Part shown: positions 11,270 to 54,830 of the stretch, piece after piece
Layout: every line of letters begins with the position of its first letter
Numbering within the stretch: position 1 is the stretch's first letter
Assembly: GCF_038025025.1 (NCBI RefSeq)
Contig: NW_027117343.1
Location: 2,356,001 to 2,420,000 of the forward strand
Direction: 5' to 3'
DNA: 64,000 bases
Origin: Phyllosticta citribraziliensis
Lineage: Eukaryota
Translations under genes and position numbers: made by a program
The notes under the pieces: model-generated
Told to the model about the DNA's origin: nothing
Seen by the model: the letters and a program-made list of their open reading frames with translations, nothing else
Database searches by the model: none

Positions 11270-13989
11270 CTAATACCACGAATGAAAGACGCCCGGCGTA
11301 TTCGAAGGGTTGAAAGTTTGCGACATCTGTCCTGGGTCGATATCCATGCCGTATTGGTTGACCAAGTCGTCCCAGCTGGCCCAGTTCATGGGGTCGTCGC
11401 CGAGAGTAGGAGAGGTGGCGGAGCTCGGTGTTTTGTTTTGGTTCGAGGAGTCGGTGCGGGCCAAAGAAGGTTTATGCGAGGGCGGGACCACTGGAGAGTT
11501 GTTGTCGCTTATGAAAGTCCCAAGAGGGTCAAAGGGTGCAGGGTTGGAAACAGGGTCCTTGGTAAGCCATTCGGCTTGGTCCATGTTGACGTCCGTGCCT
11601 TGAGTCTGGAGGTGTAGGTTTGGGCCTGTTTGCGGCATTGTCGAAAGCATGTCGAGTCCACCTTGTTCCTGCTGTTGCCGGTCTTCTTGCTGCTGCCGTA
11701 GCGAGTTCTGCCTGACCAAGTCGGATACTCGTCTACCGCGATCTATTTGATCGAGTGTGGGAGTTCCATTCTGGAGAGCACTCGTGTTTGCGTTTGCCAT
11801 TGGAACGCCATTGTTCCTTGACCGGGCATATTGAGCGAAAAGATCCAGACCGAGCGGGCCTTGAGAAGCGAGGCTTGGGTAGCTGTTTAACTGCGCACGG
11901 AGAATCTCCTCACGCTCCCGCTGGAGCTCAGCCTCCCTGGCTGCGCGAGCTCTGGAGACCAGTTTTCTCAATGGTCGCCAGATGCAACCCTTCTTCTGAT
12001 CAAGGGTGATATCTTGCCATCGCCTGGCAGCTGTTGCTTCGACAGCACGCCACGCCCGATCCACAACCTCGCCCTTGGTCCGCACGCAGAGCTCCGAGAG
12101 AAGAAAGGCGATGGCGTGCCATTGAACATAGGTCCTAAACAGCCACCCCCACTTTTCTGTGCGGGCCTCGGTCTCCAGAAGCAGGGCGTATTCGACATTT
12201 TCTAGAGACGTGACGAACAACTTGTCCCTAGTTTCTTGCGGAAGCGAAGCGCCGCCATCCAGACGCTGGTATGGGTGGTATATCATGAGCCACATCTTGG
12301 ATACAATCAGGCGGGAGACGGTAGCAACAACCCAGTAAAGCGGGACGGTCATGTCGCAATGCTTGAGGTATTTCTCCTCAACCTTGGAGTGTACTTCGGT
12401 AATCCACTGTTCCTTTTGCTCCAGAGAAACATGCGCAAGGAACAGGTTGCATCGATCTGGTCCAGGAGGCACATATTGAATACGGCGATAAACATTGGCG
12501 ACCTCGAACCGGATCAGGCAAAATGTGATTTCTGTGCATCCCTGGCGTTCCTCTGGAAACTCTTCCATTCCTGGATACAGGTCACTGTCGTGGACGTTGA
12601 GAGGAATCTTGGTATCAAACGAAGCCTCCACAATGGTTGGGTCGCAGCCGTGATCTTCGCTTGCTCTCGAGTCCAATACGCAAATCTGCCACCAGAGTCG
12701 ACGACGCATTTCTATGTCAAAAGGTGACAAATGGAAGTGAGTGCCATCCCGGTGGATGCCAAGCGTCTGGGCCATCCGGACTGCAAGCCCGGTCAGGGTC
12801 CAAATTATCCGCGCGTCCTCGTTGCGGCGCAAGCAGATGAGAAATATTATAAAGGCTTGCAATACGACCATCTCATCAGACAGAAGGAAGTTGGCGCGAG
12901 CAAGCGCTTGTTCGATGCCGAAGCGGTAGCGCGTAAGCAGGGTCGATTTTTCCTCGCCAAATTTCTCCTGGACATCCTCGGATGCAGTAGCAGTGACGGT
13001 GGCGTAATAGACGGCAAATAGTAGAGACTCCATCCCCTTTGGTATGCGATCTCGGTTCCTGTTTGCTGCGAGCAGTTTGGGCTCGGTAGTGGGGATGTGG
13101 AAGATCTTGAGCAATGGATCCACGTTCTCTTTGTAGAAGCTCCACATCAACTCAAAGATCTCTGGGGGTGGGTGCATCGGTGCCAGGTCCACGTTTGTCG
13201 ACCTATACCCAAAAATGTAGCTCTGGTGGTCATTTGACGGGGACGAGTCTGGGGATGGGAAATCCTCTTCTTCTTCGGAGGAATGCGACAGGAGGGCTTT
13301 GATGTCTTCCACCTGTTTGACGCCGCGATTAAGCATTCATCCAGCAAAGCTGCACCGCAGACAAGGTTGCATACCTCGTTATCCAAGTTTGCCCAAAAGC
13401 TACTGTTGATGTACCTGCTCTTTCCCTCATCAACCACCAGCCTACCAAACCTCGTCTCGAGCCCAGCGAGGGCCGAGTTTTCCGGTGGAAGAAATCTCCC
13501 TGGTACGGCTCCTCTCGAGCAGAATTCTTGAAATACATTTTCTTCTTCCCGGGGTTCCGGCTCTGGTTCCTGATCCTGCACTTGTTGCGATTCATCCTTC
13601 TCGGCCCCCTGAGTCGGTCCTTCGGTTTCGCTTATCGACGGCACACCACCCAATGTTTTGACGACACCCTCCAGCTTCTTCAGTCTATCCAGCAGCTCCG
13701 CATCTGCAGGCTTGCGCGGCTTCCGCGGGGCGCGTCCGGGAGCTGGGAATATGCAATCGATTCTGGCCTTGGTGCAGTTGGTGCACGGATGCTTCTTGTC
13801 GCATTTGACTTTGCGCCGGCGACAGGTGACGCAAGAGCGAGGGTTCAGGCCGGAGCTGCCACTGGCACCACTGATGCTCCCATTGTGCGTGTGTGAAGGT
13901 GGAGAGGTGGACGAAGGCTTCGAGACTCGGTCGCCGCTGCTGTTGCTATGTGCGCGAAGGATTTGGTCAATGGAAGAGGTGTCGGACAT
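11270..13989 (-). CDS. Zn(II)2Cys6 transcription factor with fungal TF middle-homology domain, 2 exons (intron 13313-13374)
   Basis: RSCVTCRRRKVKCDKKHPCTNCTKARIDCIFP; middle-homology motifs GLAVRMAQTLGIHRDG and EMRRRLWWQICVLD; GTATGC..CAG intron joins LDNE|VEDIK. Confidence 0.93.
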
Positions 13990-39500: not shown

Positions 39501-41903
39501 AAGAAAGTAAGAAGCAACTGCCGTTTGCGAAGTGTTCAACTGCCGACAGCTCGACCGCTACTCTAGACTGTACGTGTACCGTAGCACTGGTAAAAGCCAC
39601 AAAGAGACCAGAGACAGAATCGCGTTGTGCTACGGGAAGAGCCCAACGGCGGTATTCGGTTTCCACAGTGAAACTTGGAGCTGACCCTTGGAGCGTTTGT
39701 TGCTTGGTGCTCGACCCCTCACTTTCAGTCCCGGGATCCGCCGTGCCCGTCTGCAAAGTTTCGCCCGGTTGGCTCTGGGCGGCAGGCTGTTTTCGGGGCT
39801 GTAGACTTGGGATTTTGTCAACCACCAAGCGTCCGTTCGGACCGGACTACAAATTAGCGGTCGGTGCGGAGCGCCGTCGGTCCACAGTCGTCCGTCGATG
39901 AGCGAGAATACGGCGGCCAACAGTCGCTCGGTCGGGCGTCTCCGACCGAGGGCAAAGATCTGGAGGATCGCCATGCGACGTGCGCAATAATTCAGCCACC
40001 ACGAAGCGGCTCCCAAGTCGCCAGGTCAGATTGGCGAGTTGCGGAGTAGGGAGAGCGGGAGACGGCCACCGTCTCCGGTTTCAGCTCTGCGCCTTCGTTG
40101 GCTGCTCTTTTTTTACACTTTGGCGCGCGTGTTTGCTTGGATCTGGGGTCGGTGTGGGGTGCATGCGAGAACCTGGGGTCAGCACCTTAGCCCAAGCCAG
40201 ACCTTGGCCCTGCAACAGTATAGTCCGCACAGCTCGGCAAGTGGTGTACATGGTGTTGACTAGATGACAGGCGTCGACCACCCGTCGTTGCATTCTGCAG
40301 GGCAGTTTGGGCGCGCTCTTCGGAAAATTGATTGCAGAGTTTCGAAAGCGAAGAAGGATGCAATATAACCTCGCAACGAATTGGCGCGGCTGGGGATGGA
40401 AAAGCTGAGGCGAAGGAGCCTCGCGCGGTGGATTGAGTTGATGTCTCGCATCGAATTGGGGTGGTGTCGTCCGCGTCAAGTCTTGTTGATGCATTTCCAT
40501 TTTGAGAAGAGGTGTAGGCAAAAGGCAAGCTTCCGCGGGGTCCGCTTGGTGTTGCGGGCGGTTCGAGGCAGGTCGAAGCGTAGACGAGCGGGCGGGAGAG
40601 TGGGAATGGCGTTGCAGAAGCTCGCATGGTGTTGAAGCTTCTTCCATGTCATCGATCGGAGGGCCGGAAAACGTGGTCCTGTAGGGATGGTGCAGCAATT
40701 CCATCAGGATAACGTGGTCCGCAAGGGGAATGGCGGATATGGAGAGTCGCGGGTGGTCGACACGAGGTCAAGCTTAGAACCAAGCTTCGCTGCCACGTGT
40801 GACATGGCAGATATGCGGGTCGGGCTGCAAAATTTGGAGGTGCATTTTGGGTTTGACCATTTGTTGTTGTGGTTGTGGTTGTGGTTGTAGTGATGGTGGC
40901 CATGGCATGGGTGGCTGGCCGGGGTGCCGAGGATTGGCCAATTCGAGTCAAGGGCGTGGGGGAGCAGTCCTGAGGCAGGCCGGGACGAGGCACACGGACT
41001 TGATTCTCCATGAGGCACAGCGGATTACCTAGTGATGAGAGCGTGAGTGTCGCGGATGGGGCCGTTTCGTTTTTGTGCCATTTCCCAGAGGATGCCGTGG
41101 TTTGCTGCGTGTCGGCGGCAGAGAGCGACGGCATGTGTAGTGAGTGAGTGCAAGGGCAGCAGGGAGCAGGTTTGCCGGCGCCACACCTGCCTCGACACGG
41201 GTCGGCCGACCTGCCAGGAAAAATCTTGATCCAAAGACTCCAGGCCCGTCTGTCGTTTTTCGTTGCTAGAGAAAAAATCGGAACGGAACGCGAATGGCAG
41301 CGTAGCCTCACGTGCCTCTTTTCCCAGGAAAAAGCTCGGGCGGACGCCGGGTCTTATCTCGTTTGCCCCGGACTGTGAGTACAGCATCAACACCCACCTC
41401 GCTTCTCCAAATCCCCACCTCCAGCTCACGCGCTCCCCCAAAGATCCACCTTTTTTCTCCGTGGGGTGACACACAAAAGACCCACTGCGACGTCCAGACC
41501 CTCTTTGCCCGCCTGCGGATTGGCTGCTACCCCATGGGGCTCTGTCGCGCGGAAACGCTCTCTTGAAAGAGGAACCCGTTCGACGACCACTACTTCATAT
41601 GTACACGACGTCCGCCGCGCACGGCCGGCTGACGGCTGCGTCGCTGCAGTGCTGCCCTGTTTGCGCCAGTCGTTCCCGCTAGCTTCGTCCGCCAGTTTTT
41701 GGCTTAAGATGTCGGACCCGGCTAGAGTCACCATCTGCCAAACCACTCTTCCTTTGCGCCCTGCCCCTCCGCCAATCATCTCTGTCCCTTGACTCTCGGC
41801 GCCACCCCTTTGTTCTGTCACGTTCAATCCTTGATCCAACACCCATCTTGTCAAAAGTTCCAGGGCCTCTGTCAAATTCGCCGACGAGCAAATCATTGCC
41901 AAA

Positions 41904-43656
41904 ATGGGTGAAGGCGCCTCGCCGCGTGGGAGCGGTGCTGCTTCGCCCACCGTTCAGAAGCAATCCATCGAGCACGTCGAGATGGGCGTCGATGGAAACG
42001 ACATTGTCAAGCTTTCTCAAGACGAGGCCGAGCTCGAAGAGGCGCTGAGAAACTATGTGCCCGGTACTTCTGAAGAGAAGAAGCTTGTGCGGAAGATTGA
42101 TCTGCTTCTCATGCCCATCCTGTGGATCATGTGAGTGGCTAGTGCCTTCCAACTCTCAAAGCAATCGACTGATAAAATGGCAGGTACATTCTCAACTACG
42201 TCGATAGGACCAATATTGTAAGTTTTTCAACTCCAAATTTTGCCTAGGCTTCTTCTCACATTCTACAGGGAAATGCCAAAGTCGCCGGCATGGCTGATGA
42301 CCTTTCGCTAAACGATCAGGATTACGCATGGCAGGTTCCCTCTCCCTTGATTTTTATTCCTATTCTAATCCTATAACTCGTTGGTACAGGATCGTGTCCA
42401 TCTTCTTTTTTGGGTATCTCATCTGCGAGGTCCCCTCCAACATGATTCTCGCCCGCTCTCGCCCTTCTATCTTCCTGCCCGGCATCATGTGCGTGTGGGG
42501 CGCGCTTAGTGCCGCCATGGCTTCAGCCAACAGTTACGGTGCGATGTTGGCCTTCAGGTTCGTCGTGGGTTGCATCGAGTCTGGCTTCTTTCCTGGAGTG
42601 CTGTACCTGCTTAGTTGCTGGTACACCTCTGCCGAACTCGGCAAGAGATTTACCATCTTCTACACGGCCTCGACTCTCTCCGGGGCTTTCGGAGGGCTGC
42701 TTGCCGGTGGCATCACGGACGGCCTACACAATGCGCACGGAATTTCTGGCTGGCGATGGCTGTTCATCGTCGAGGGCGTGTGCACGGCAGGCGTCGCACT
42801 AATTGCCATGTTTATCCTCCTCGACTACCCTTCTACATCACCACGTCTTTCGCTCCGCGAACGGCAACTGGCAACTGTCCGCCTGATTGCGGACCAGCGC
42901 GCCAACCAGCCAAACTCTCAACACAGTGCCACAGTCCGCGAACCATTGTCTCACTGGGCCGCCTTTGTTGCTGCGCTATCCGACTACCGCACGGGCTATT
43001 TCCTCATCATGCTCATGCTCAATGTCGGGGCTGGCACCATCTCCTACTTCATTCCCACGCTCACCCTCACGTTGGGCTACGACTCGTCCATGGCCCAATA
43101 CATGACGGTGCCAATTTACATTGTTGCGGCCGTTATCGCCAACTCTGCTGCATTTGCAGCCGACATTACACAGCGGCGGCGCCGTGCCGCCGGCAACAGC
43201 GACGGCATTGGAGGTCGCCGGCCGTACGTTGGGTCGTTTCTGACCCTTGGCTGCGTATCCGCCATCATCTGCGCTGTCGTTAAACACAACGTCGTCAGAT
43301 ACGTCTTCACGTGTTTCGTGGCCGCAGGCATCTGGACGGCGCTGCCGCTCGCGCTTGCCTGGATCAGCGCAACCTTCTCGGTCCCGTCATCGCCAGACGG
43401 TGGGCCACCCAGCCCGGAGAAGCGCGCAATTGTCCTTGCGCTCGTCAATGCTTGTGGCAACTTGAGCAGTGTTTATGGTAGTCGGCTTTGGCCCGATCAG
43501 GACAGTCCAGACTACCTCATGGGATGGTCCGTCACGGCAGCGTTTCTAGGTCTGGCAGCTCTCATGGTCATCGCGAGCCCGGTCGTTTTCCGCCTACCAG
43601 TCAAGGAATTGGTCAAGAGGAGGAGCGATGACGACGTTGAGGCCCGGGCAGACTAA
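41904..43656 (+). CDS. MFS transporter of the anion:cation symporter (Dal5/Tna1-like) family, 4 exons; third intron GC-AG (42331-42389)
   Basis: EEKKLVRKIDLLLMPILWIMYILNYVDRTNIGNAKVAGM..., EVPSNMIL, ESGFFPG...LSCWY, GWRWLFIVEG. Confidence 0.93.
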
Positions 43657-44759: not shown

Positions 44760-45050
44760 CATGTCTTTGCTCCTTTTCCAATGCCCATGTCTCAATCCGT
44801 TCGCCCCGTTTTTTGCTGCCCATGTCCCAATTTGTCCATACCGTTTTTGCTGTCCATGTTTTTGCTCCTTTTCCAATGCCCAACTCTCAATCTGTTCACC
44901 CCGTTTTGCCTGTCCATGTCCATGCCCCTATTTTTTGCACCCAAGCCCCAATCTGTTCGCGCCGTCCGTTTTTTCTGCCCATGTTTTTTGCTCCTTTCCC
45001 AATGACCAAGTCTCGATCTGTTCATCCGTCTTTCCTGCCCTTGTCTGTCT
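44760..45050. repeat. Degenerate pyrimidine-rich minisatellite (~3 imperfect copies of a ~60-nt core)
   Basis: Core CATGT(T/C)TTTGCTCCTTT(T/C)CCAATG(C/A)CCA..TCTC(A/G)ATC(C/T)GTTC..CCCGT recurs near 44760, 44855 and 44980, with sub-repeats between. Confidence 0.75.
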
Positions 45051-45323
45051 TCTTGTTTTTTCCACCAAAGCTCCATTTCCGTCATGATTCCGTTGCCCAT
45101 GTACCTGTCCTCCTTTTTTTTCTTTTTTGAGTAGCACCACCCAAGCTCCATCCTTCCGTCCCAAGTTTTGCCGATCCGTGGTTTTCCCAAGATCCTGTCG
45201 TTCGTCGCTGTTTTACCGGTCTGTGGCCTTGTCCCAAGCTCCTTCTTGAGTGTTTTTGTACCGTTGTCCAAGAAGCCCTTCCGACGTGTTGATTGACACC
45301 AGCCGTGTCGTCTGTCAGCACGC

Positions 45324-46407
45324 TCACCACGCTCCCGTGACCGTGGTGGAAGTGGGATTGTTTTCAAAGCCCGCAGAGTCAAAGTCCGCTACGGTAAAGC
45401 CCGCAGGGCCAAAGCCCGCATTGTCGGTTTCCTCACTCGAGACGCTCTCTGGCTTTGGATTGTGACAGATCATCTTGCAGGTGCCATCGTAGTACTTGCA
45501 GCGACGGCCAAAGCTATCACCCTTCTTGCCGCGAAAGTCGAGAGCCTTTTTGGCGAGCAAAATCAAGTACGCCGTGGTGTCATCCATGCTGTCGGTGGAA
45601 ATTCCCTCAAACCAGTCACCATCGGCTCGACGGGCCCAAAGGTCCTCGTAAAGGCGCATGAGGCCTGAAGACTCGGGCAATCTCTTCGGCAGGACGCTGA
45701 CCCACTTCTTCGGAAACTCCGAGAACATGTTGATGAGCTGCAAGACTTCATCGATGATGGCATTTTTGAATTTTGCGTCCAGAAGGTGGTCTCCGAGGAT
45801 GTAAGACTCGAGAAGAATGTCGAAGATGCCGGCAGAAGGATCGGCGGAAGTGCAAGCGAAAGAAGATTGAGATTCGGAGTCGGACATTGCCGCCTCAATC
45901 ACCTGGGGCTCCTCCATCGCTTCCATTGGAGTGTCGTAACGGGAGTTGATGATACACTTGTTGAGCAGGAGCCATTTCTGGTACACAGAAAAGACCTCCG
46001 GGTCCTCATCAGGCAGTCCAACAGTCCTCTCCTTGGACTCTTTCCAGTTGCCACCCAGAGCCTTCTCAAAGAACTCCGAGGTCGAGCGCAGCAAAATTTC
46101 ATGGACGAGGAAGACTTTGTGATTGTCTCCGCTGCCGACGGACACCTCAATCATCTTGCCATCATCAACACTTTGAACAAATGTTAGCCCGTGTGTCATG
46201 CCATTGATTGAGGAAAGCTGAAACTTACGCGCGACCAAAAACCTCTTGGTGCTCTCGGTCGAAGCGATGGTACTTTTCATCCTTTTGGCATTGGCATTCG
46301 CAACTCCAACCGCAAATGCAAATGCAACCGCCTTCTCCGCAGATAATAGGTTCATATTTCGAGCAGGTAGGGTGGTAGCAACAACAATAATTGTCGTCGT
46401 TGGCCAT
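45324..46407 (-). CDS. BTB/POZ-domain protein with Cys-rich N-terminal exon, 2 exons (intron 46171-46228)
   Basis: BTB motifs IEVSVGSG...FLVHEILLRSTSEFFEKALGGNWKES...LPDEDPEVFSVYQKWL and YILGDHLLDAKFKNAIID. A 58-nt GTAAGT..GCTAAC..AAAG intron joins exon 1 MANDDNYCCCY...EVFGRA|VDDGK. Confidence 0.85.
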
Positions 46408-46947
46408 CTTGCAACGGAGGATCAATTCTGAGAAGGTGGGTCAGTGCTCTGTTGAGCGTGAAACTTGCGAGGAGCAGCACACTCACGTTCCTCGTCGACA
46501 AGTGTTGCGAATGGTCGATGATCTGTGACGTCCGAGCGTGTTGCGGCGACGTGGAAGATGGACGCCGGTCTGTGGGTGTTGAAGAAGGTAGACGGCGCTA
46601 GGGAGAGAGGGCAGCGTTGAAGGGTGGTGATGTCAAGGAAGAGGGTGGCGCTGAAGGATGGTGGTGTCAAAGAAGAGGGCGGCGCTTTATATTCAGGCTG
46701 CGGCGGCCACCACCGCCAGAGGAGGTACCGCCAGCTCATGGATTACCGCCCGATTTTCGCTTACCATGTGCTTCCTAATTTGGCCTAGGTGCAGTTCTCT
46801 TCACAATGATGCATTTTCTCTCAAATCACACGCCGCATCTTGAGCAGCCGCGCTTAGGGTCCTCCATAGGCCCATCCTCGCGCCGTCGACAGAGCACAAC
46901 ACCTCTCACTTTCAACCTTTACACTCAACCTTCTGGAAACTACAAGC

Positions 46948-48124
46948 ATGTCGACAGACGCGACTACGGCGGATGATGCCGCCTTGAGCGAGGAGAATAC
47001 ACAGAGATTCTTGGAGACATTCAACTCTTGGAAAGCCGGTGTGGCCAGGCCCGGAGCGAGTGGCTCTGAGAGCCAAAAGTTTGACCCCCACACAACTCTC
47101 TCCAAGGTTTTACTGAGTACTGTCCTAGGGCCGAGGCTGTCAAGTGCCCCTATGATTCGTTCCTCACCGCCCATGAGCACAATGTCCTCAACACCTCGTC
47201 TACGTAAGTTCTATCTCTATGGGCTTTGGGGGAAATGATGCTTTCTGGTCTATTATTGCGGCGAACGACAGCTCCCTAGCTCCGTGCGCAGCAGTGAATG
47301 AAAGCTCGCTGGTGCGACCGCAGCGCCAAAATACAAAATTGCTGACTCGAAAAAGCATCGACCAGAAAGTTATTCGTGTGACTGTCGGCAGCGATGACAA
47401 CAAGCATACGTTCTATGTCCACGAGCCATTGCTCGAGATGCACTCGCCGGTCTTCAAGTCTTGCCTCAGCCGCAACTGGTCTGAAGGTATCAAGGGCGAA
47501 ATCGACCTGCCCGAGGATGACCCCAAGGTTTTCTTGATGTTCGTCAGGTTCGTCTACGCGGGCCAGATACTCATCATCGCGGATGATACGCTGCTTTGGC
47601 GCCAGACAACGGATGGTGGATTCCATCGTCGCGACGTCGCGGGTGACATCCTCATCCACAGCTACATCTTCGCCGACAAGTACCTGGCCAGTACCTTCAA
47701 GAACGCCTGCATCCAAGGCCTCATCGACAGGTTCATGATGGGCCCCGCCTACTTCCACGCCATCCGCCAGAATGCAGAGCTGGTGTACGACAAGCTCTTG
47801 CCCTCGTCGGCACTGCGTCGTCTCTACGTGGACATCTGGGCCTGGGCGAGCACTGAGGAGTGGCACGACGACCTGGGCAACGATTATCATGACATTCACA
47901 CGGCCCCTTACGAGTTCTGGCAGGACATCGCCAAGGCCATGACCCGCACCAAGGACCGTCTCGTCAAAATCCCCCGCGATCATATCATCGTCATGCACTA
48001 CCCTTGGGTTCACGACAAGATGCGCTACTTTGAGCGCGAACGTGCCCCAGAGCCTGACGTTCCACGTCCGTTTGACGTTGACTTCGCCGCGCTCTCGCTT
48101 CAGCCAGAGCCCAGCGACGACTAA
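46948..48124 (+). CDS. BTB/POZ-domain protein; 5' exon structure uncertain, BTB core from ~47360
   Basis: IRVTVGSDDNKHTFYVHEPLLEMHSPVFKSCLSRNWSEG...LPEDDPKVFLMFVRFVYAG and YIFADKYLASTFKNACI; strong donor GTAAGT at 47204; ATG at 46948 is tentative. Confidence 0.8.
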
Positions 48125-48769: not shown

Positions 48770-49136
48770 ATGTACATCTCACCTTCCAAGATGAATTCGT
48801 TGGAGGCAAAATACTGATCAGGAAAATAGGAACAAGAACTTCAAGGGCATTCCCGTACCCGCGGATATTTGCCCCCCGCCGATTTATGGGGCTGTCATCA
48901 ATTACGACCCGTTGCCTGACCTCAGTGCTTATCCCGACCAATCCAAATATCCTTGGAAGGTCACCCGTTCTGCCGTCACTCAGCAGACGTCTGTGGCGGA
49001 GCAGCAGCAGCAATAGCAACAACAGGAGGTGAAGGCGACGGGAGGGAAGAGGAAGAGGGAGGAGGAGGAGGAGAAGGATGACGACGACATGGACGTGGAT
49101 GAGGAGGAGGATGTGGCTTCCGTCCCTAAGAAGTGA
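48770..49136 (+). CDS. Small spliced orphan gene or pseudogene with internal TAG (49014-49016) in a poly-Q run; basic plus acidic C-terminal extension
   Basis: AT|GTACAT..TACTGAT..ATAG|G intron (48772-48829) rebuilds the ATG; reads MNKNFKGIPVPADICPPPIYGAVINYDPLPDLSAYPDQSKYPWKVTRSAVTQQTSVAEQQQQ*QQQEVKATGGKRKREEEEKDDDDMDVDEEEDVASVPKK*. Confidence 0.5.
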
Positions 49137-49447: not shown

Positions 49448-52400
49448 CTACTCAAGCCCAGGAAAGCCATTCACCGGCACAGCCTCCAACAGCCGCCTCA
49501 ACATGGCCAGCACCTCGCCATCTCTCCCCGCCACACCAACAGCCTTCACAATCAAGGGATACAACACCTTCAAATGCTGCTTCTCCAACGCCTTTTTGCG
49601 CCCGTCACCAGCACCCAACCTCTCTATGCCATTAAATGCGCCCTCCTCCGCGACCAACTCTCTCAACTCCTTGGCGAAAAACAGCAACTCGCTTCGTTGG
49701 CTATCCGGCAGCGGCAGCCGACCTCGTAGCGGCTGATCGGCGACGTAGCCCTTGAATACCAAGCCCGCGCGCAGGAGCAAGAAGGGCGCCGCCGCTTGGG
49801 AGAGCGCGACGCGTTCGGGCGAGCCGTCCGACTTGGAGACGAGGGATAGGAGCTCGCGCAGACAGACATATGACATGCGCATGCGCGGTGTGGGCGCGGG
49901 ATCGAATGTGCGGCCGTGTCGGGGACGGTATAGGTCAACGAGTGGGTCCGCGCCGGATTCTAGCTTTGAGCGAGGGGGGAGATCGGAAATGGAGGGGGAG
50001 TGGATAAGAGACGTGGTGAAAAGAGACAACGCATAGGCGTTGCGTGTGGTTGATGGGATGTACTCAGCGCCTAGGCGCGGGATGATGATGTTTCTGAGCG
50101 CAGTGAGCGACTTCATGTCGAACCCTTCGTCGTCCAAGATGGGAGTGTTGGCTGTAGCGGCCGTGAGGTCGGCGCGAGCGATGCCATCGGCAATTGCGGC
50201 GGTCTCTACCCATATCGGAACGAGGTGTTCCGGCGAAATCGAAAGGCGTTCGGCATTGGCGAGGGCAGGGCCAAGGATGTTGAGCGCCGTTGTGGTAGCC
50301 TTTTGCCAGATTGGTGGTGCCTTTCCCTGAGTCTTGAAAGCATACTTCAAGCGAATAGGAGTAGAGAGGCTTTGAAGAGAAGAAAGAAGCGCGCCTTGAG
50401 TGAACAGCTCAGCTTTTCCAATGTGCTGGTCCACCACAGTTTGAATCTTCTCCATGGACGCTTTTGACAGAGCGACAAAGGTGTTTCCGCCAGAGTTTTC
50501 GGGGGTTTCGAATGGAAAGGCGATAAGGTCGGCAAAGCATTTGACCACGACAGTTGAGGCACCGTCAAAGTCGGTCTTGATCATCTGAATACTCTGGAGG
50601 ACCTGCTTCTGCAACGCCGTCAACAGGTCTTTGTCTGACGAGTATGACGTGCTCTCCTCTTCCGCCACACAGCGACGAAGATTCGACGCTGCTTTTGACA
50701 AATCTTCTACGCCGAGTTTGTTACCAAAAAGACGGTAGACCTCTTTAAAGCAATGTACGTAGGCCAAGAATGCGTCGACATTTTCAGGGTCCGAAGGATT
50801 GATCGAACGGCCGACGGGGAAATCTTCCAGCCAAATGTGGCTTGCTTGGCTAATGGCAGCTTCTCCGACCTGGTTGGCAGAGTCAAGCTTGCCCAGCAGA
50901 CCAGCTACCGCGCCGTATGTCACGGCGTTCACGGCCTGTGATCCACAGGTCAAGTAGGTCCTGAAATGCTCAAACATGGTGCCCCAGAGCTGCGAAAATT
51001 CGGGGGCTTGGAGAATGTTTTCCTGGTAGTTTGAGAACAATTTGACCAGGCCGTTTAGGATGATCCGTGTCGTTTCAACCCACCCCTTTAGTTCCTCAAT
51101 GTCTGGGGTTGGCGAGGCAGACTGAAGGTCCTTCTGGTCTTTGATGTTTGAGTGTAACAGGTGGAAGAGGATGGCACGAAGACAAAGGTTCCATGATGCT
51201 GGAGTAAGCTGGTCTCCATAGTTGTCGAATATGCGCAAGAGAGTGTGGAGCGTGCCGTTTCTGACCTCTGCTCGACGATCTTGAGCCACCGACGCGATTC
51301 GGAGAAGTAGATGCAGCCACATGGCGGGGAGGGAGTGCACTTTGACATCTTCACGAATGTGAGTGCCAGGATCTTCGACAGAAACGGACTTTGTAGCAAG
51401 CTCCTCCATCTTTCCCGCATCGGCGCGACCACGAAGGTAGTCGGAGACATTCCAAAAGAACGTGATTGTCTATCACTGTCAGCCTTGGTTCACCACAAAA
51501 TTGACCGCGCATACCGTGAGTGACATGTTCAAGTCCTCCTTCTGGTCGCAGAATAGGTACAAGAGATCGAGAAGCATTAGAATGGGGTCATCCGGAATCG
51601 AGGTAAGGAAGTCTCCACAAATTAGTTGAACAGATCCGAAGGCAAGCCGCCCAATCCTCGTGGAGATCATTCCAGATGCAGTCTTGCTGGCAGCTTCGGA
51701 CATCGACGCGTCAGATTGGTCCTTGTTCTTCTCTGTCGCTGCACCAGTAAAGACGCTTCTTGCCAGCAGGAAAACCAGGCTCCACCCCACGACGAGGGAG
51801 TCGCCAAACTGTTCGAGCAGTGCTTTGAGAGCGTCCAGGACAACGACATGTACTTCAACGTCAGTCTCGTCAAGTTCATCCTCAGGGCCACTGGCACCAT
51901 CATAAAGAGCTCCAACCACTTGATGTAGAGCGTTCAGAATACGCTCGTGGATTTCGTTCTTCAACTCTTCATCTTCATTCTTGGCTTCTTTTGCGACATC
52001 TTGCACCAGTCGACTAAGCACATCAATAGCCAGCAAGCGAATCGAGCTGCTCACTGATCCTCTTGTTGCGACGGAGATCAGTGTGTTGATGAACACTGTC
52101 CATCCACTAACATCGGGATCAAAACTGATTAGACGGTTGGCATTGAGCGTTCCCAAGTCACCGATCTTGTGTAGTGGAAAGACGTAATCCTGTACATGAA
52201 GTTCGGATCTGATGTTGAGGCCAAAGCTGCTCTCCCGTCTTTCGGTAGTTGGTGTGGAAGCTCCTTGAGCCGTTGATTGCGCTCGCGGTTTACCCTCGAG
52301 CAGAGCGCACAATGCACTGAGTACCTGGACGAAAGAGTCGTTGGGAAAATCGACGGTGCTTTCGAACAGTCTTGAGGCAGCGGCTTGTACAGCAGCCACT

Positions 52401-54830
52401 TCAGAACCCATACTTTGAGCCAGTGCCCCGCCGTCGTGTCTGTTGCCTCTCCGGTCGCGACCAGTGCTACCAGTATTGACAGCAGCCATGATGATGTCAG
52501 CTTGCTGCAACGTCTCAAAAATGATGGACCATGCTGATTCGAGGGTCGGGCCAAGAGCAATAGCAAGGTTTAGAAGCGCTCTGAGGCAGAGAAGATTTCG
52601 AGTGCTGAGAGTTGGATACCCGGCCTCAGACGATGAAGCTCGGTTCTTTTCTGACCCCTGACTCACCAGGCTGTCTACACTCAGCAAGCCTTTGTTGTTG
52701 TTGAAGACGGTGGGCGTCTCATTTCCAGAGCCGGAAGGTTTTGGGGTTGAGACTGTGGCAGTGAATATAGTCGGAGGGACAGCAGCTTTGCCCAGGGTAG
52801 TGAGAAATGCATCCCGGGGCGTGGAAAGTCGCAGCAACCCTGCTATCTGCGTGAATTTTTGAATAGATCGAACAAGGTCGTGGTAGTAGTCGGCATCCAA
52901 CGCAGCGTTCAGAAATGTCGAGCAAGTTGCAAGCACTGCTGGCCAACAATCGTTGATGGCCTCGGCACTCATTTTGATGGCGTCTTCGGCCGGGTTGTGC
53001 TTCAACTCCAAAGGATTGACTGGCACCGTTCTTCGGCGGAAAGATTGCGATCGAGCGACCCGACTCCTGGGCTTTTCTTCTTCGGGCGTCTGTGGTTCTG
53101 CTTGTTCTTGAGAGTTGGGGCCCTTTTTCGACTTCTTTTTGCCATCTTTGTGAACTGTCAAAGGCAAAATGAATTTGGCAAGGCTCTCGGAAAAGTTGTT
53201 GATGCAGCCCAAAACAAGACTGTAGATGTATGTCTCTGGCAACGACGGAGGCTCGAGCTTATCTAGGTGATCCATGCATGGAATCCTGAGCGTGCTCCAC
53301 TGTGTACTGATTCCTGGCACACTTGCCATGGTTGGGGCGCCACCAATGATTCCTGCCACGGCACCAGCTTCCAAAGCAGCTTGCGCCGCTGGAGCATCGT
53401 TCTCCGGGGCCCCAACTGGAGCGGTAGACTGCTGGCCCAAACCAATGACGGATGGCTTTTCCGTCGAAAGTCGGACAAAGATGGCCAGGTTGTCGCGAAT
53501 CACCGGCTTGCTGTCTTCTCTGGCATCATAGTGGGAGTAAATCTGCAAAATGAGATTTGGATCCGAATAAAGGTTTCGGAAAATCTCCATGCACATGGCG
53601 CGTTTCCAAGGGGTTGCAGCATCAGGATCAAGCATATGATTCAATAGGCCTAGAGCCATGCCGCATTCTGAAGACAAGATGGTGATGTGTTGTCTGAGCA
53701 GCAGATTGAAGACACGCATGATCCGCAGGGTAATGGGAAATGTCAGCCGCTCCGATATGGCCTTGATTACCAGTGGCATCAGATGGACACGAAGCACATT
53801 TCCTTGCTCAGGATGAGTCAAGAAGAGGTTGCCATGATTACTGAGTACGGCCTCGATCAGTTCAAGGCCTGAAGCTTGCGAAATCGGGGAGAACCGAATG
53901 GATTGAGGTCTGTTGCCTTCAGTCAAAAGGCAAATATCACGAAAGACCTGTCCTCAAATAAGCACATGCGTGGAGTCCGATGGTGATTGGATTTACCTTG
54001 TAGGCATCGTGGGCCGCGGGACGCACGACAACGGGCCCAGCCTCGCTCGGCACCTCTGCCACGGTTGGAATTTCGAGTTGCTTTGCTTTATTCCATGTCA
54101 GATTCATATATTCCGGCCGTGACATAGTACTCCTTACCATCTTCCGTGACCACTTTTTCAAATGTGGAGATGACGAGTTGCTGTAGCGTGGCAGCAGCAG
54201 TACCGCTGACAGCGGGATTCTTTGCGGTTTGCAGTGAAGAACAGACTTGGAGCACACTCGAAAGCAGTTCACCTCTGATTTCATTGGAGTAATTCTGGAG
54301 CAAGGAGGGTAATGCCTGGAGAATTTTCAATTGAGTATCCAAACCTGTAGGGCGTCAGGAGCGGTTGGAATTTGGGTTATTGACGGGCGTTGGAAATTAC
54401 TCAGTTGGCTGGAGTCTTTAAAACCGTCAAGGACCTCACTCAGCCTGCTGCGTGGGACAGCGCTCATGACAATGAGTCGCTGAAGGCAGACGACAGCGGC
54501 CCCGGCGAACCTAGCATTTTGGGTGGTGCATGCTTTGACGAAGGGGTCGATAAATTGTGGCCGGCGGACCAAGTCTCTTTCAGCATCAGTCAAGCACTAG
54601 GGAGCCATTGGCGCTCTGGCATGTACCAACCGGCAGCTAGCTGAACTTCAGACGTAGAAGGCAGAGCCTTGAGTTCCTGGAGCGATTTGTCGGCGGCCTG
54701 GAAGCTCGGTCAGCCATGCGCCAGGGTGTTGAAAGCGGCCAAGCAAACGGACATTTCGTAGCTCGGGATTCTTGCGCTTCGAATCCTGGATGAGATTGGT
54801 CAGCTCGGAGCTGAGAATCTGCGCTGTCAT
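49448..54830 (-). CDS. MON2: Mon2/Ysl2 endosomal/Golgi trafficking protein, ~7 exons
   Basis: MTAQILSSELTNLIQDSKRKNPELRN; QLKILQALPSLLQNY; AAATLQQLV; WKRAMCMEIFR; CWPAVLA; PRDAFLTTLGK; RNLLCLRALL; DRRAEVRNGTLHTL; YVADQPLRGRLPLP. Successive ORFs are linked by canonical introns. Confidence 0.92.

Follow-up and report, generated by a model that had tools for sequence, protein, structure and literature searches.

A missed Cys-rich first exon of a BTB gene in Phyllosticta citribraziliensis and a tail that probably binds metal

The question raised by this locus is whether a short and extremely Cys-rich reading frame lying in front of a BTB domain belongs to the BTB gene and, if so, what such a tail would do there. 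The window analysed here is a stretch of 64,000 nucleotides (nt) from Phyllosticta citribraziliensis (NCBI RefSeq assembly GCF_038025025.1, contig NW_027117343.1, positions 2,356,001 to 2,420,000 of the forward strand), and the gene in question is read on its minus strand. A sequence-only reading had proposed that the frame is a hidden exon and that the product is a metallothionein-like, metal- or redox-gated adaptor of Cul3. Our analysis indicated that the frame is the genuine first coding exon of the BTB gene and that it encodes a lineage-specific, fast-evolving Cys/His-rich tail of about 45 residues on a BTB scaffold. The tail probably binds metal through thiolates; a dedicated sensor role is less likely than that of a constitutive appendage. 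The gene is built from the following parts (positions are those of the window).

46229..46407, minus strand: coding part of exon 1, 179 nt, i.e. 59 codons and 2 nt of a split Ala codon (from the sequence and an X1 contig, see below)
46171..46228, minus strand: phase-2 intron of 58 nt with donor GTAAGT and with GCTAAC 12 nt before the AG
45324..46170, minus strand: exon 2, 281 codons and the stop TGA at 45324-45326
46428..46486, minus strand: 5' leader intron of 59 nt (GTGAGT...CACTGAC...CAG), removed in one X1 contig
46686..46691, minus strand: TATAAA, 284 nt upstream of the ATG at 46407

The start codon (46407-46405) stands in a strong context, with an A at -3 and a G at +4. Exon 1 ends with GC at 46229 and exon 2 opens with T at 46170, the split codon being Ala, and the protein runs FGRA-VDDG across the junction and then through V-D-D-G-K-M-I-E-V into the long open reading frame (ORF). 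When the exons were joined by their coordinates in a script, a coding sequence of 1026 nt was obtained, equal to 341 amino acids (aa) and a single terminal stop. Retention of the 58-nt intron ends the Cys frame immediately (GCG TAA, as read in the sequence), and a read-through ORF of 343 aa (45324-46355) stays open across the intron in the other frame. There is no ATG on the minus strand between 46739 and 46407, which makes 46407 the first AUG of a 330-nt leader; the nearest ATG further upstream (46739) lies before TATAAA, so that no AUG falls within the predicted leader. The sequence-only reading had named several of these elements, and all that it said of the sequence proved correct: our check agreed with it on the GTAAGT/GCTAAC intron that joins the Cys frame to the BTB frame, recovered its 343-aa read-through ORF, placed its TATA-like box (given as about 280 bp upstream) at the distance listed above and found its 11 Cys in 33 residues, with CCC and two CxCxC, at residues 8-40.

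A longer protein starting at ATG 46739 was considered and judged unlikely, because TATAAA lies downstream of that codon, a 34-nt tandem repeat lies inside the added stretch, and the 34-nt length change found there in the relative X3 (see below) is not divisible by three. Once the leader intron is spliced out, ATG 46739 shares the frame of ATG 46407 (273 nt, stop-free), and a start at this upstream codon would add 91 Pro/Ser/Trp-rich residues, which are probably not coding.

Exon 1 is missing from both deposited models of this genome, as the word hidden had implied. The 318-aa P0154 opens with M-K-S-T-I-A-S, uses the other frame and continues across the intron, and the 200-aa P0003 begins within exon 2; both are 100% identical to the window. 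The models of P. citricarpa are mixed: the read-through form (P0158) stands for four accessions (six contigs), and the spliced forms P0004 and P0159 for one accession each. Spliced models with the Cys start are already public as 'hypothetical protein' in P. citricarpa, P. citriasiana and P. citrichinensis.

We accept exon 1 as real because its frame is conserved, a paralogue carries the same intron, its ATG is the first AUG and contigs end at both of its splice sites; Cys richness alone is not decisive. Two features are needed for the first two of these points.

46246..46284, minus strand: conserved segment K-D-x-K-Y-H-R-F-D-x-E-H-Q, residues 42-54, which leads into the helix before the first BTB strand (from alignments)
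46948..48124, plus strand: divergent BTB paralogue (P0073-like) with three coding exons (tblastn 100%, 96% and 91% over its pieces)

A search with the exon-2 protein gave matches in Phyllosticta proteins only, and exon 2 has 59% identity to P0004 of P. citricarpa. When P0004 was used as the query in HMMER, 2345 matches were obtained at E<=1e-3, and the four at E<=1e-30 comprised P0003 of the window itself and three proteins of other Phyllosticta species; at this stricter threshold, all relatives found of the 341-aa protein belong to Phyllosticta. A Cys-containing N-terminus in the same frame was present in four other Phyllosticta species, namely P. citricarpa (P0004, P0159), P. citriasiana (P0006), P. 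citrichinensis (P0007, P0155) and P. capitalensis (P0160, P0163 and shorter models). In all four, this N-terminus finishes in ...A immediately before [LVI]-D-[DN]-G/E-K, and in P. citricarpa and P. citriasiana its end reads ...C-x-C-x-K-D-x-K-Y-H-R-F-D-x-E-H-Q-x-x-x-G-x-A before [LVI]-D-[DN]-x-K. The paralogue, whose BTB domain is recognised by Pfam with 28.9 bits, has introns at about 47079-47126 and 47205-47355. The latter is 151 nt long, has a GTAAGT donor, is in phase 2 and lies directly before I-D-Q-K-V-I, the counterpart of V-D-D-G-K-M-I, and thus site and phase are the same in both genes. Judged from consecutive accession numbers, the BTB pair is adjacent in P. citrichinensis too. The N-terminus of the paralogue also has C-P-Y...H-E-H at the position of the conserved C...Y-H...E-H segment of the studied gene.

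The remaining support came from assembled contigs, of which only exact ends and the leader-intron joint were used as evidence. X1 and X2 were taken as RNA by guess, no run being recorded as RNA. One X1 contig joins 46427 to 46487 (CT..AC on the plus strand, i.e. GT..AG on the minus strand) at a depth of 14.8, and therefore X1 holds spliced minus-strand RNA that enters exon 1. The unspliced form of the leader intron (46428-46486) was seen in a contig of depth 21.8, and X2 has the unspliced form only. Furthermore, one X1 contig spans exactly 46229-46427 and the next starts exactly at 46170. No X1 contig joins 46229 to 46170, and the intron at 46171-46228 is uncovered, an uncovered stretch not being evidence in itself; the same applies to X2, whose contigs leave 46090-46397 uncovered. 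We thus strongly infer the 58-nt splice without a direct sighting of it. The AlphaFold2 (AF2) model of P0004 is in line with the junction: a helix at residues 55-66 crosses it, with a mean predicted local distance difference test score (pLDDT) of 74 over residues 51-60 and 92 over residues 61-70. A confident helix across the junction implies that exon 1 contributes to the folded unit.

That folded unit is formed mainly by exon 2, which is divided as follows.

45732..46169, minus strand: BTB fold, exon-2 residues 1-146, with a low-confidence acidic/Ser-rich insert at about residues 80-110 (AF2)
45492..45731, minus strand: 3-box/BACK-like helical extension, exon-2 residues 147-226 (structure search)

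Pfam recognised the BTB domain (PF00651) only weakly, with 19.0 bits for exon 2 and 19.3 bits for the 343-aa ORF, both below the gathering cut-off of 20.5, and no substrate-recognition domain (Kelch, MATH, zinc fingers) was found in the Pfam scan. The AF2 model of the window's exon 2 (140 sequences) has a mean pLDDT of 80.9, rising to 96-97 over residues 11-70. In a wide structure search (48,161 chains, independent of Foldseek) the 40 best-scoring rows (Z >= 8.3) were without exception BTB-fold chains, that is BTB/POZ, Skp1 and Elongin C. The best match was the BTB domain of BTBD6 (Z 11.7, root-mean-square deviation 2.9, 104/109 aligned), followed by BCL6 (Z 11.5). The longest alignments were those with SPOP (166 residues), KBTBD2 (161), the BTB-BACK part of A55 (159), KLHL11 (158) and KEAP1 BTB+3-box (131), and the ones with KBTBD2, A55, SPOP and KLHL11 extend to residue 211-218 of the exon-2 model. 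Foldseek, run on the full-length P0004 model, returned KBTBD4, KBTBD2, SPOP, A55, KLHL11, NPR1 and KEAP1 at E values from 5e-5 to 1e-3. On these predicted structures exon 2 is a genuine BTB fold plus 3-box/BACK-like helices, which upholds the earlier claim that the exon is spliced onto a BTB domain and lengthens the likeness to a BTB-3-box/BACK unit of about 160 residues. Outside it the protein consists only of the Cys-rich tail of 59 residues and a C-terminal tail modelled with low confidence. In the latter, which is rich in G and F, the relative X3 is without 30 nt (in frame) near 45382 on the minus strand.

Two copies of P0004 residues 50-300 were predicted to pair, with an ipSAE of 0.62 compared with 0.00 for the best of three controls, contact agreement between runs of at least 90% and a partner pLDDT of at least 79. 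The mark used for ipSAE was reached by 21 of 30 microbial proteins solved as same-chain pairs and by 0/23 solved as single chains; for eukaryotes it was reached by 17/29 pairs and 0/30 single chains, and by only one of the seven pairs without an older solved relative. The pass may thus reflect memory of solved complexes, and the model supports binding without showing it. The predicted interface is formed by P0004 residues 193-291 (about 45470-45750 of the window, minus strand), i.e. the C-terminal helices and R-C-K-Y-Y-D-G, and residues 286-291, which hold the C-terminal motif discussed later, lie within it.

The tail itself contains two features of interest besides the conserved segment.

46288..46386, minus strand: Cys cluster, residues 8-40, 11 Cys (9 TGC and 2 TGT codons) with CCC and two CxCxC
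46312..46327, minus strand: hexanucleotide repeat ATTTGC (coding strand), 2.7 copies, which encodes C-I-C-I-C (TRF, period 6, 100% matches)

Cys makes up 11 of the 59 residues of exon 1 (18.6%) and 11 of the 33 in its core, and a six-frame scan of the window found no 33-residue stretch that is richer. Other stop-free frames come near to it, with 10 Cys in 33 residues near 11613 (+) and 9 near 40814 (+) and 44833 (+). Together with one near 49081 (-), these frames, which hold 8-10 Cys in 33 residues, contain runs such as C-C-C-R-S-S-C-C-C-R.

The N-terminal Cys counts in the five species are 11, 7, 6, 4 and 4. Among the 103 of 151 family matches that could be scored, namely those in which the BTB anchor motif was located by a script, only P0004, P0006 and P0007 had at least four Cys in an N-terminus of at most 60 residues. 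In each of the five species a CxC (CxxC in P. citrichinensis) immediately precedes the conserved [KN]-D...H-R segment. On visual comparison, C-x7-C-G-x3-C-x-C and C-x-C-x-K-D are common to the window and P. citricarpa; C-x-C-x6-C-x-C-x-N-D was read in P. capitalensis and C-x-C-x2-C-x2-C in P. citrichinensis. By the shuffle test, the shared Cys pattern is no more than composition gives. The sequence-only reading had asked whether the Cys residues and their link to BTB are conserved in homologues: a Cys-rich N-terminus with BTB does recur in the four other species, but the alignment of the Cys-rich part with that of the closest orthologue, in P. citricarpa, was matched by 1513 of 5000 shuffles of the P. 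citricarpa segment, and for P. citrichinensis and P. capitalensis 1847/2000 and 1708/2000 shuffles reached the real score.

The codons may tell how such a tail varies. Beneath C-I-C-I-C lies the hexamer repeat, and C-E-C-Q-C-Q is encoded by TGC-SAA triplet pairs; slippage in these repeats can therefore gain or lose CxC units. The contigs of X3, a close relative, are 90-99% identical to the window. One of them crosses the intron with 3 differences in 159 letters and then no longer follows the window across 46311-46397, which encode residues 4-32. The record length suggests about 90 unaligned letters where the window has 87 nt, and the change, deletion or replacement alike, is a multiple of three. 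X3 has a further gap of 30 nt in the C-terminal tail, likewise divisible by three, and a leader change of 34 nt, which is not.

Taken together, we favour an explanation in which a missed exon adds a metal-folding Cys tail as an appendage to a dimeric BTB scaffold, and we put its chance at slightly under even. By itself the tail would be disordered, and its thiolates would let it fold around Zn2+ or Cu+ ions. About four Cys, i.e. a paired CxC or CxxC beside the conserved His-containing segment, would be retained across the genus as a core, and the cluster would have been enlarged to 11 Cys in this species, at least partly by slippage of TGC-containing hexanucleotides. The tail would then act as a constitutive partner-binding or stabilising appendage of the dimeric BTB scaffold, and the scaffold may plug into Cul3.

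A number of results weigh against this explanation. The shuffle tests and the divergence of X3 in the Cys region are two of them, and a third is that one Cys is replaced by Phe in P. citriasiana between its tail and the near-identical one of P. citricarpa. Exon 1 matched none of the Pfam families at E<=1, metallothioneins included; its matches among PDB sequences were at chance level (best E 0.36, an LDL-receptor-type repeat), and no neighbour above 0.78 was found in the ESM Atlas. A word-index search also gave no candidate among longer or similar-length proteins, a weak result as it needs three shared 5-residue words. In the AF2 model of P0004 the pLDDT is below 50 for nearly all of residues 1-52 (block means 42-50), and exon 1 has seven aromatic residues and three His in its 59. 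The predicted dimer interface differs from the classical BTB dimer face. For the exon itself, the lack of an X1 contig across the 58-nt intron stands on the same side, and the read-through frame is that of both models deposited for this genome and of four out of six accessions in P. citricarpa.

It could be argued from these last points that the read-through model is correct, i.e. that the 58 nt are kept, translation starts at ATG 46355 or 46280 and the Cys frame is an accidental upstream overlapping ORF. The 343-aa ORF is indeed open through the intron, and both P0154 in this genome and P0158 in P. citricarpa (four accessions, six contigs) were modelled in this way. However, upstream of the shared nucleotides the N-termini read in the other frame are dissimilar between the window and P. 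citricarpa, all models seen for the three further species have the Cys frame and the intron, the paralogue has its intron at the identical site and phase, ATG 46407 precedes 46355 and 46280 and has the better context, and X1 contigs stop at both splice sites. This is the least probable of the readings considered here. Only a little more credit can be given to a combined version in which one gene makes two products set by the 58-nt intron, the spliced form bearing the tail as part of a metal/redox-responsive Cul3-type adaptor and the retained form being a free peptide of 60 residues with 11 Cys, which is metallothionein-sized. If this were true, the hypervariability seen in X3 would suggest that metal capacity is tuned within the genus, by diversification or by the repeats.

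If the exon is accepted, its tail may be neutral, a fast-evolving low-complexity stretch that is translated while its Cys runs are by-products of unstable TGC hexamers, with only the K-Y-H-R-F-D-x-E-H-Q lead-in of importance. Much of the above speaks for this: the hexamers beneath C-I-C-I-C and the TGC-SAA pairs beneath C-E-C-Q-C-Q, the spread of Cys counts from 11 to 4, the shuffle test without significance, the Cys-to-Phe swap between sister species, the divergence of X3 in the Cys region while the intron and flanks differ at 3/159 positions, the tail pLDDT below 50, and the 9-10 Cys in 33 residues reached by other stop-free frames of the window. On the other side, the Cys cluster beside the conserved segment is kept in five of five species though the residues around it are almost wholly changed, and among the scored family matches no other member with a short N-terminus has a Cys cluster. 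We consider a neutral tail unlikely, though it carries real weight. The reading from which we started, a metallothionein-like metal or redox sensor that switches a Cul3 adaptor in the manner of Keap1, is improbable in our view. It would fit the fold (a BTB with 3-box/BACK-like helices), for which Cul3 adaptors, including KEAP1, gave the best long matches, the CxC-rich cluster with its 18.6% Cys, and the Pfam result, which left the protein with no other candidate domain for binding a ligand or substrate. It does not fit the absence of any metallothionein family match, the aromatic-rich tail, the neighbouring genes (the BTB paralogue, an MFS transporter and Mon2), among which no metal-homeostasis gene was seen, or the Cys residues, whose number and positions are not fixed, which is odd for a tuned sensor. 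The label metallothionein-like thus stands for the composition (CxC, 18.6% Cys) and falls for the family, given the Pfam result and the seven aromatics. In cysteine-string protein, runs of S-acylated Cys serve as a membrane anchor, and by analogy the Cys runs here, with their Ile and Trp, might tether the BTB protein to a membrane. P-I-I-C-G-E-G-G-C-I-C-I-C-G-W-S-C does put hydrophobic residues and Cys close to the N-terminus, but the orthologous tails are polar or charged around their Cys (e.g. C-R-C-K-A-E-S-G-C-R-C-E-K-D) and no transmembrane or lipid-binding feature was found, so that such an anchor seems very doubtful.

The favoured explanation, a metal-folding tail on a dimeric BTB scaffold, has to be seen against the wider family. 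In the family alignment the columns G, H, S, F, A, W, E, L, F, Y and D hardly vary. In 73 of the 151 family matches (P0008-P0153) a motif C-x-[YFHW]-H-x-H-x(1-10)-C is found near the C-terminus, which is likely to be a small Cys/His metal site, and the tandem two-BTB proteins P0030, P0090 and P0097 bear it twice. The counterpart in the studied gene is the following.

45465..45503, minus strand: C-terminal R-C-K-Y-Y-D-G-T-C-K-M-I-C, to which the profile of the motif aligns only at the C-x-Y start

The Phyllosticta clade has R-C-K-Y-Y-D-G at this site, with both His lost, and has gained the N-terminal Cys-rich tail instead. That the N-terminal module might be a displaced C-terminal C-x-Y-H-x-H-C knuckle, left by a tandem BTB duplication, was tried and rejected, as a profile of 76 segments gave negative bit scores on exon 1. 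A literature search combining BTB, fungal and YHEH terms found no paper on the C-terminal motif, as far as the records returned by the search could tell.

Comparison with known systems gave likenesses of different depth. KEAP1 also has BTB followed by 3-box-like helices (5nlb_A, Z 10.4, 131 residues aligned), and both are Cys-bearing BTB proteins; the studied protein differs in having no Kelch or other substrate domain by Pfam, and identity is about 10-13%. The sensor Cys of Keap1 are single residues within the BTB and intervening region, and there is no N-terminal cluster. The BTB-BACK Cul3 adaptors SPOP, KLHL11, KBTBD2 and vaccinia A55 align over 155-166 residues (Z 9.3-11.4), whereas the studied protein has neither MATH nor Kelch and a Pfam BTB score below the cut-off. 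SPOP self-associates via its C-terminal BACK region, and the predicted P0004 dimer would resemble it in pairing through the C-terminal region. Short BTB proteins of the wider fungal family are homologous across the BTB and helical parts; 73/151 of them have the C-terminal Cys/His motif, while the Phyllosticta clade is without its His. Classical metallothioneins are small free-standing proteins with few or no aromatic residues. Fungal copper metallothioneins and CxC copper sensors (Neurospora-type metallothionein, Ace1/Mac1-type regulators) share with the tail the CxC runs 3 residues apart and the density of 11 Cys in 33 residues. The tail is unlike the copper metallothioneins in being aromatic (7) with three His, in being fused to 281 residues and in a Cys number that varies among orthologues.

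The BACH proteins belong to the bZIP transcription factors and carry Cys-Pro motifs, and the studied protein has no bZIP and no Cys-Pro motifs; what they share is the BTB fold (Bach2 POZ 3ohu_A, Z 8.3). BACH1 and BACH2 are reported to be regulated through Cys-containing heme-binding motifs, a Cys-based ligand site outside BTB (PMC13748093). In its architecture the studied protein is like KEAP1 or BACH in principle only. In sum, the body of the protein is an unremarkable representative of one very large family of fungal BTB proteins and the tail is metallothionein-like in composition only. The architecture had been thought undescribed in fungi. In the literature, a full-text search, judged from titles and abstracts, found no description of a Cys-cluster BTB protein in fungi; in the databases, spliced models are public under the 'hypothetical protein' name.

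As for the surroundings of the locus, two neighbours were identified by their domains.

42328..43653, plus strand: MFS transporter (111 bits)
49451..53779, minus strand: Mon2-like protein, split over two ORFs (Sec7-like HUS and HDS, Mon2_C)

The scan covered nine ORFs around the locus and showed no gene of metal homeostasis. Between the two divergent BTB genes lies the 34-nt tandem repeat (2.4 copies, 85% matches) at 46606-46686, and X3 skips 34 nt at 46637-46672, i.e. it has one repeat copy fewer. Downstream of the gene, at 44800-45200, there is a repetitive A/G-rich stretch with 'aaaacgg...gggca' units on the minus strand; X3 contigs step back by 119-123 nt and skip 140 nt there, and therefore the repeat number is different.

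The concrete gain from this analysis is a corrected gene model. The gene models of the locus are wrong in this genome and inconsistent among strains of a sister species, and catalogues derived from them miss the tail. Many short fungal BTB proteins have no assigned role (2345 relatives at E<=1e-3), and a clade in which the Cys/His motif usual at the C-terminus has been exchanged for an N-terminal Cys cluster able to expand gives a way into the function of these termini. If the tail binds metal and controls Cul3-dependent turnover, fungi would have in this protein an equivalent of Cys-based BTB switches like KEAP1.

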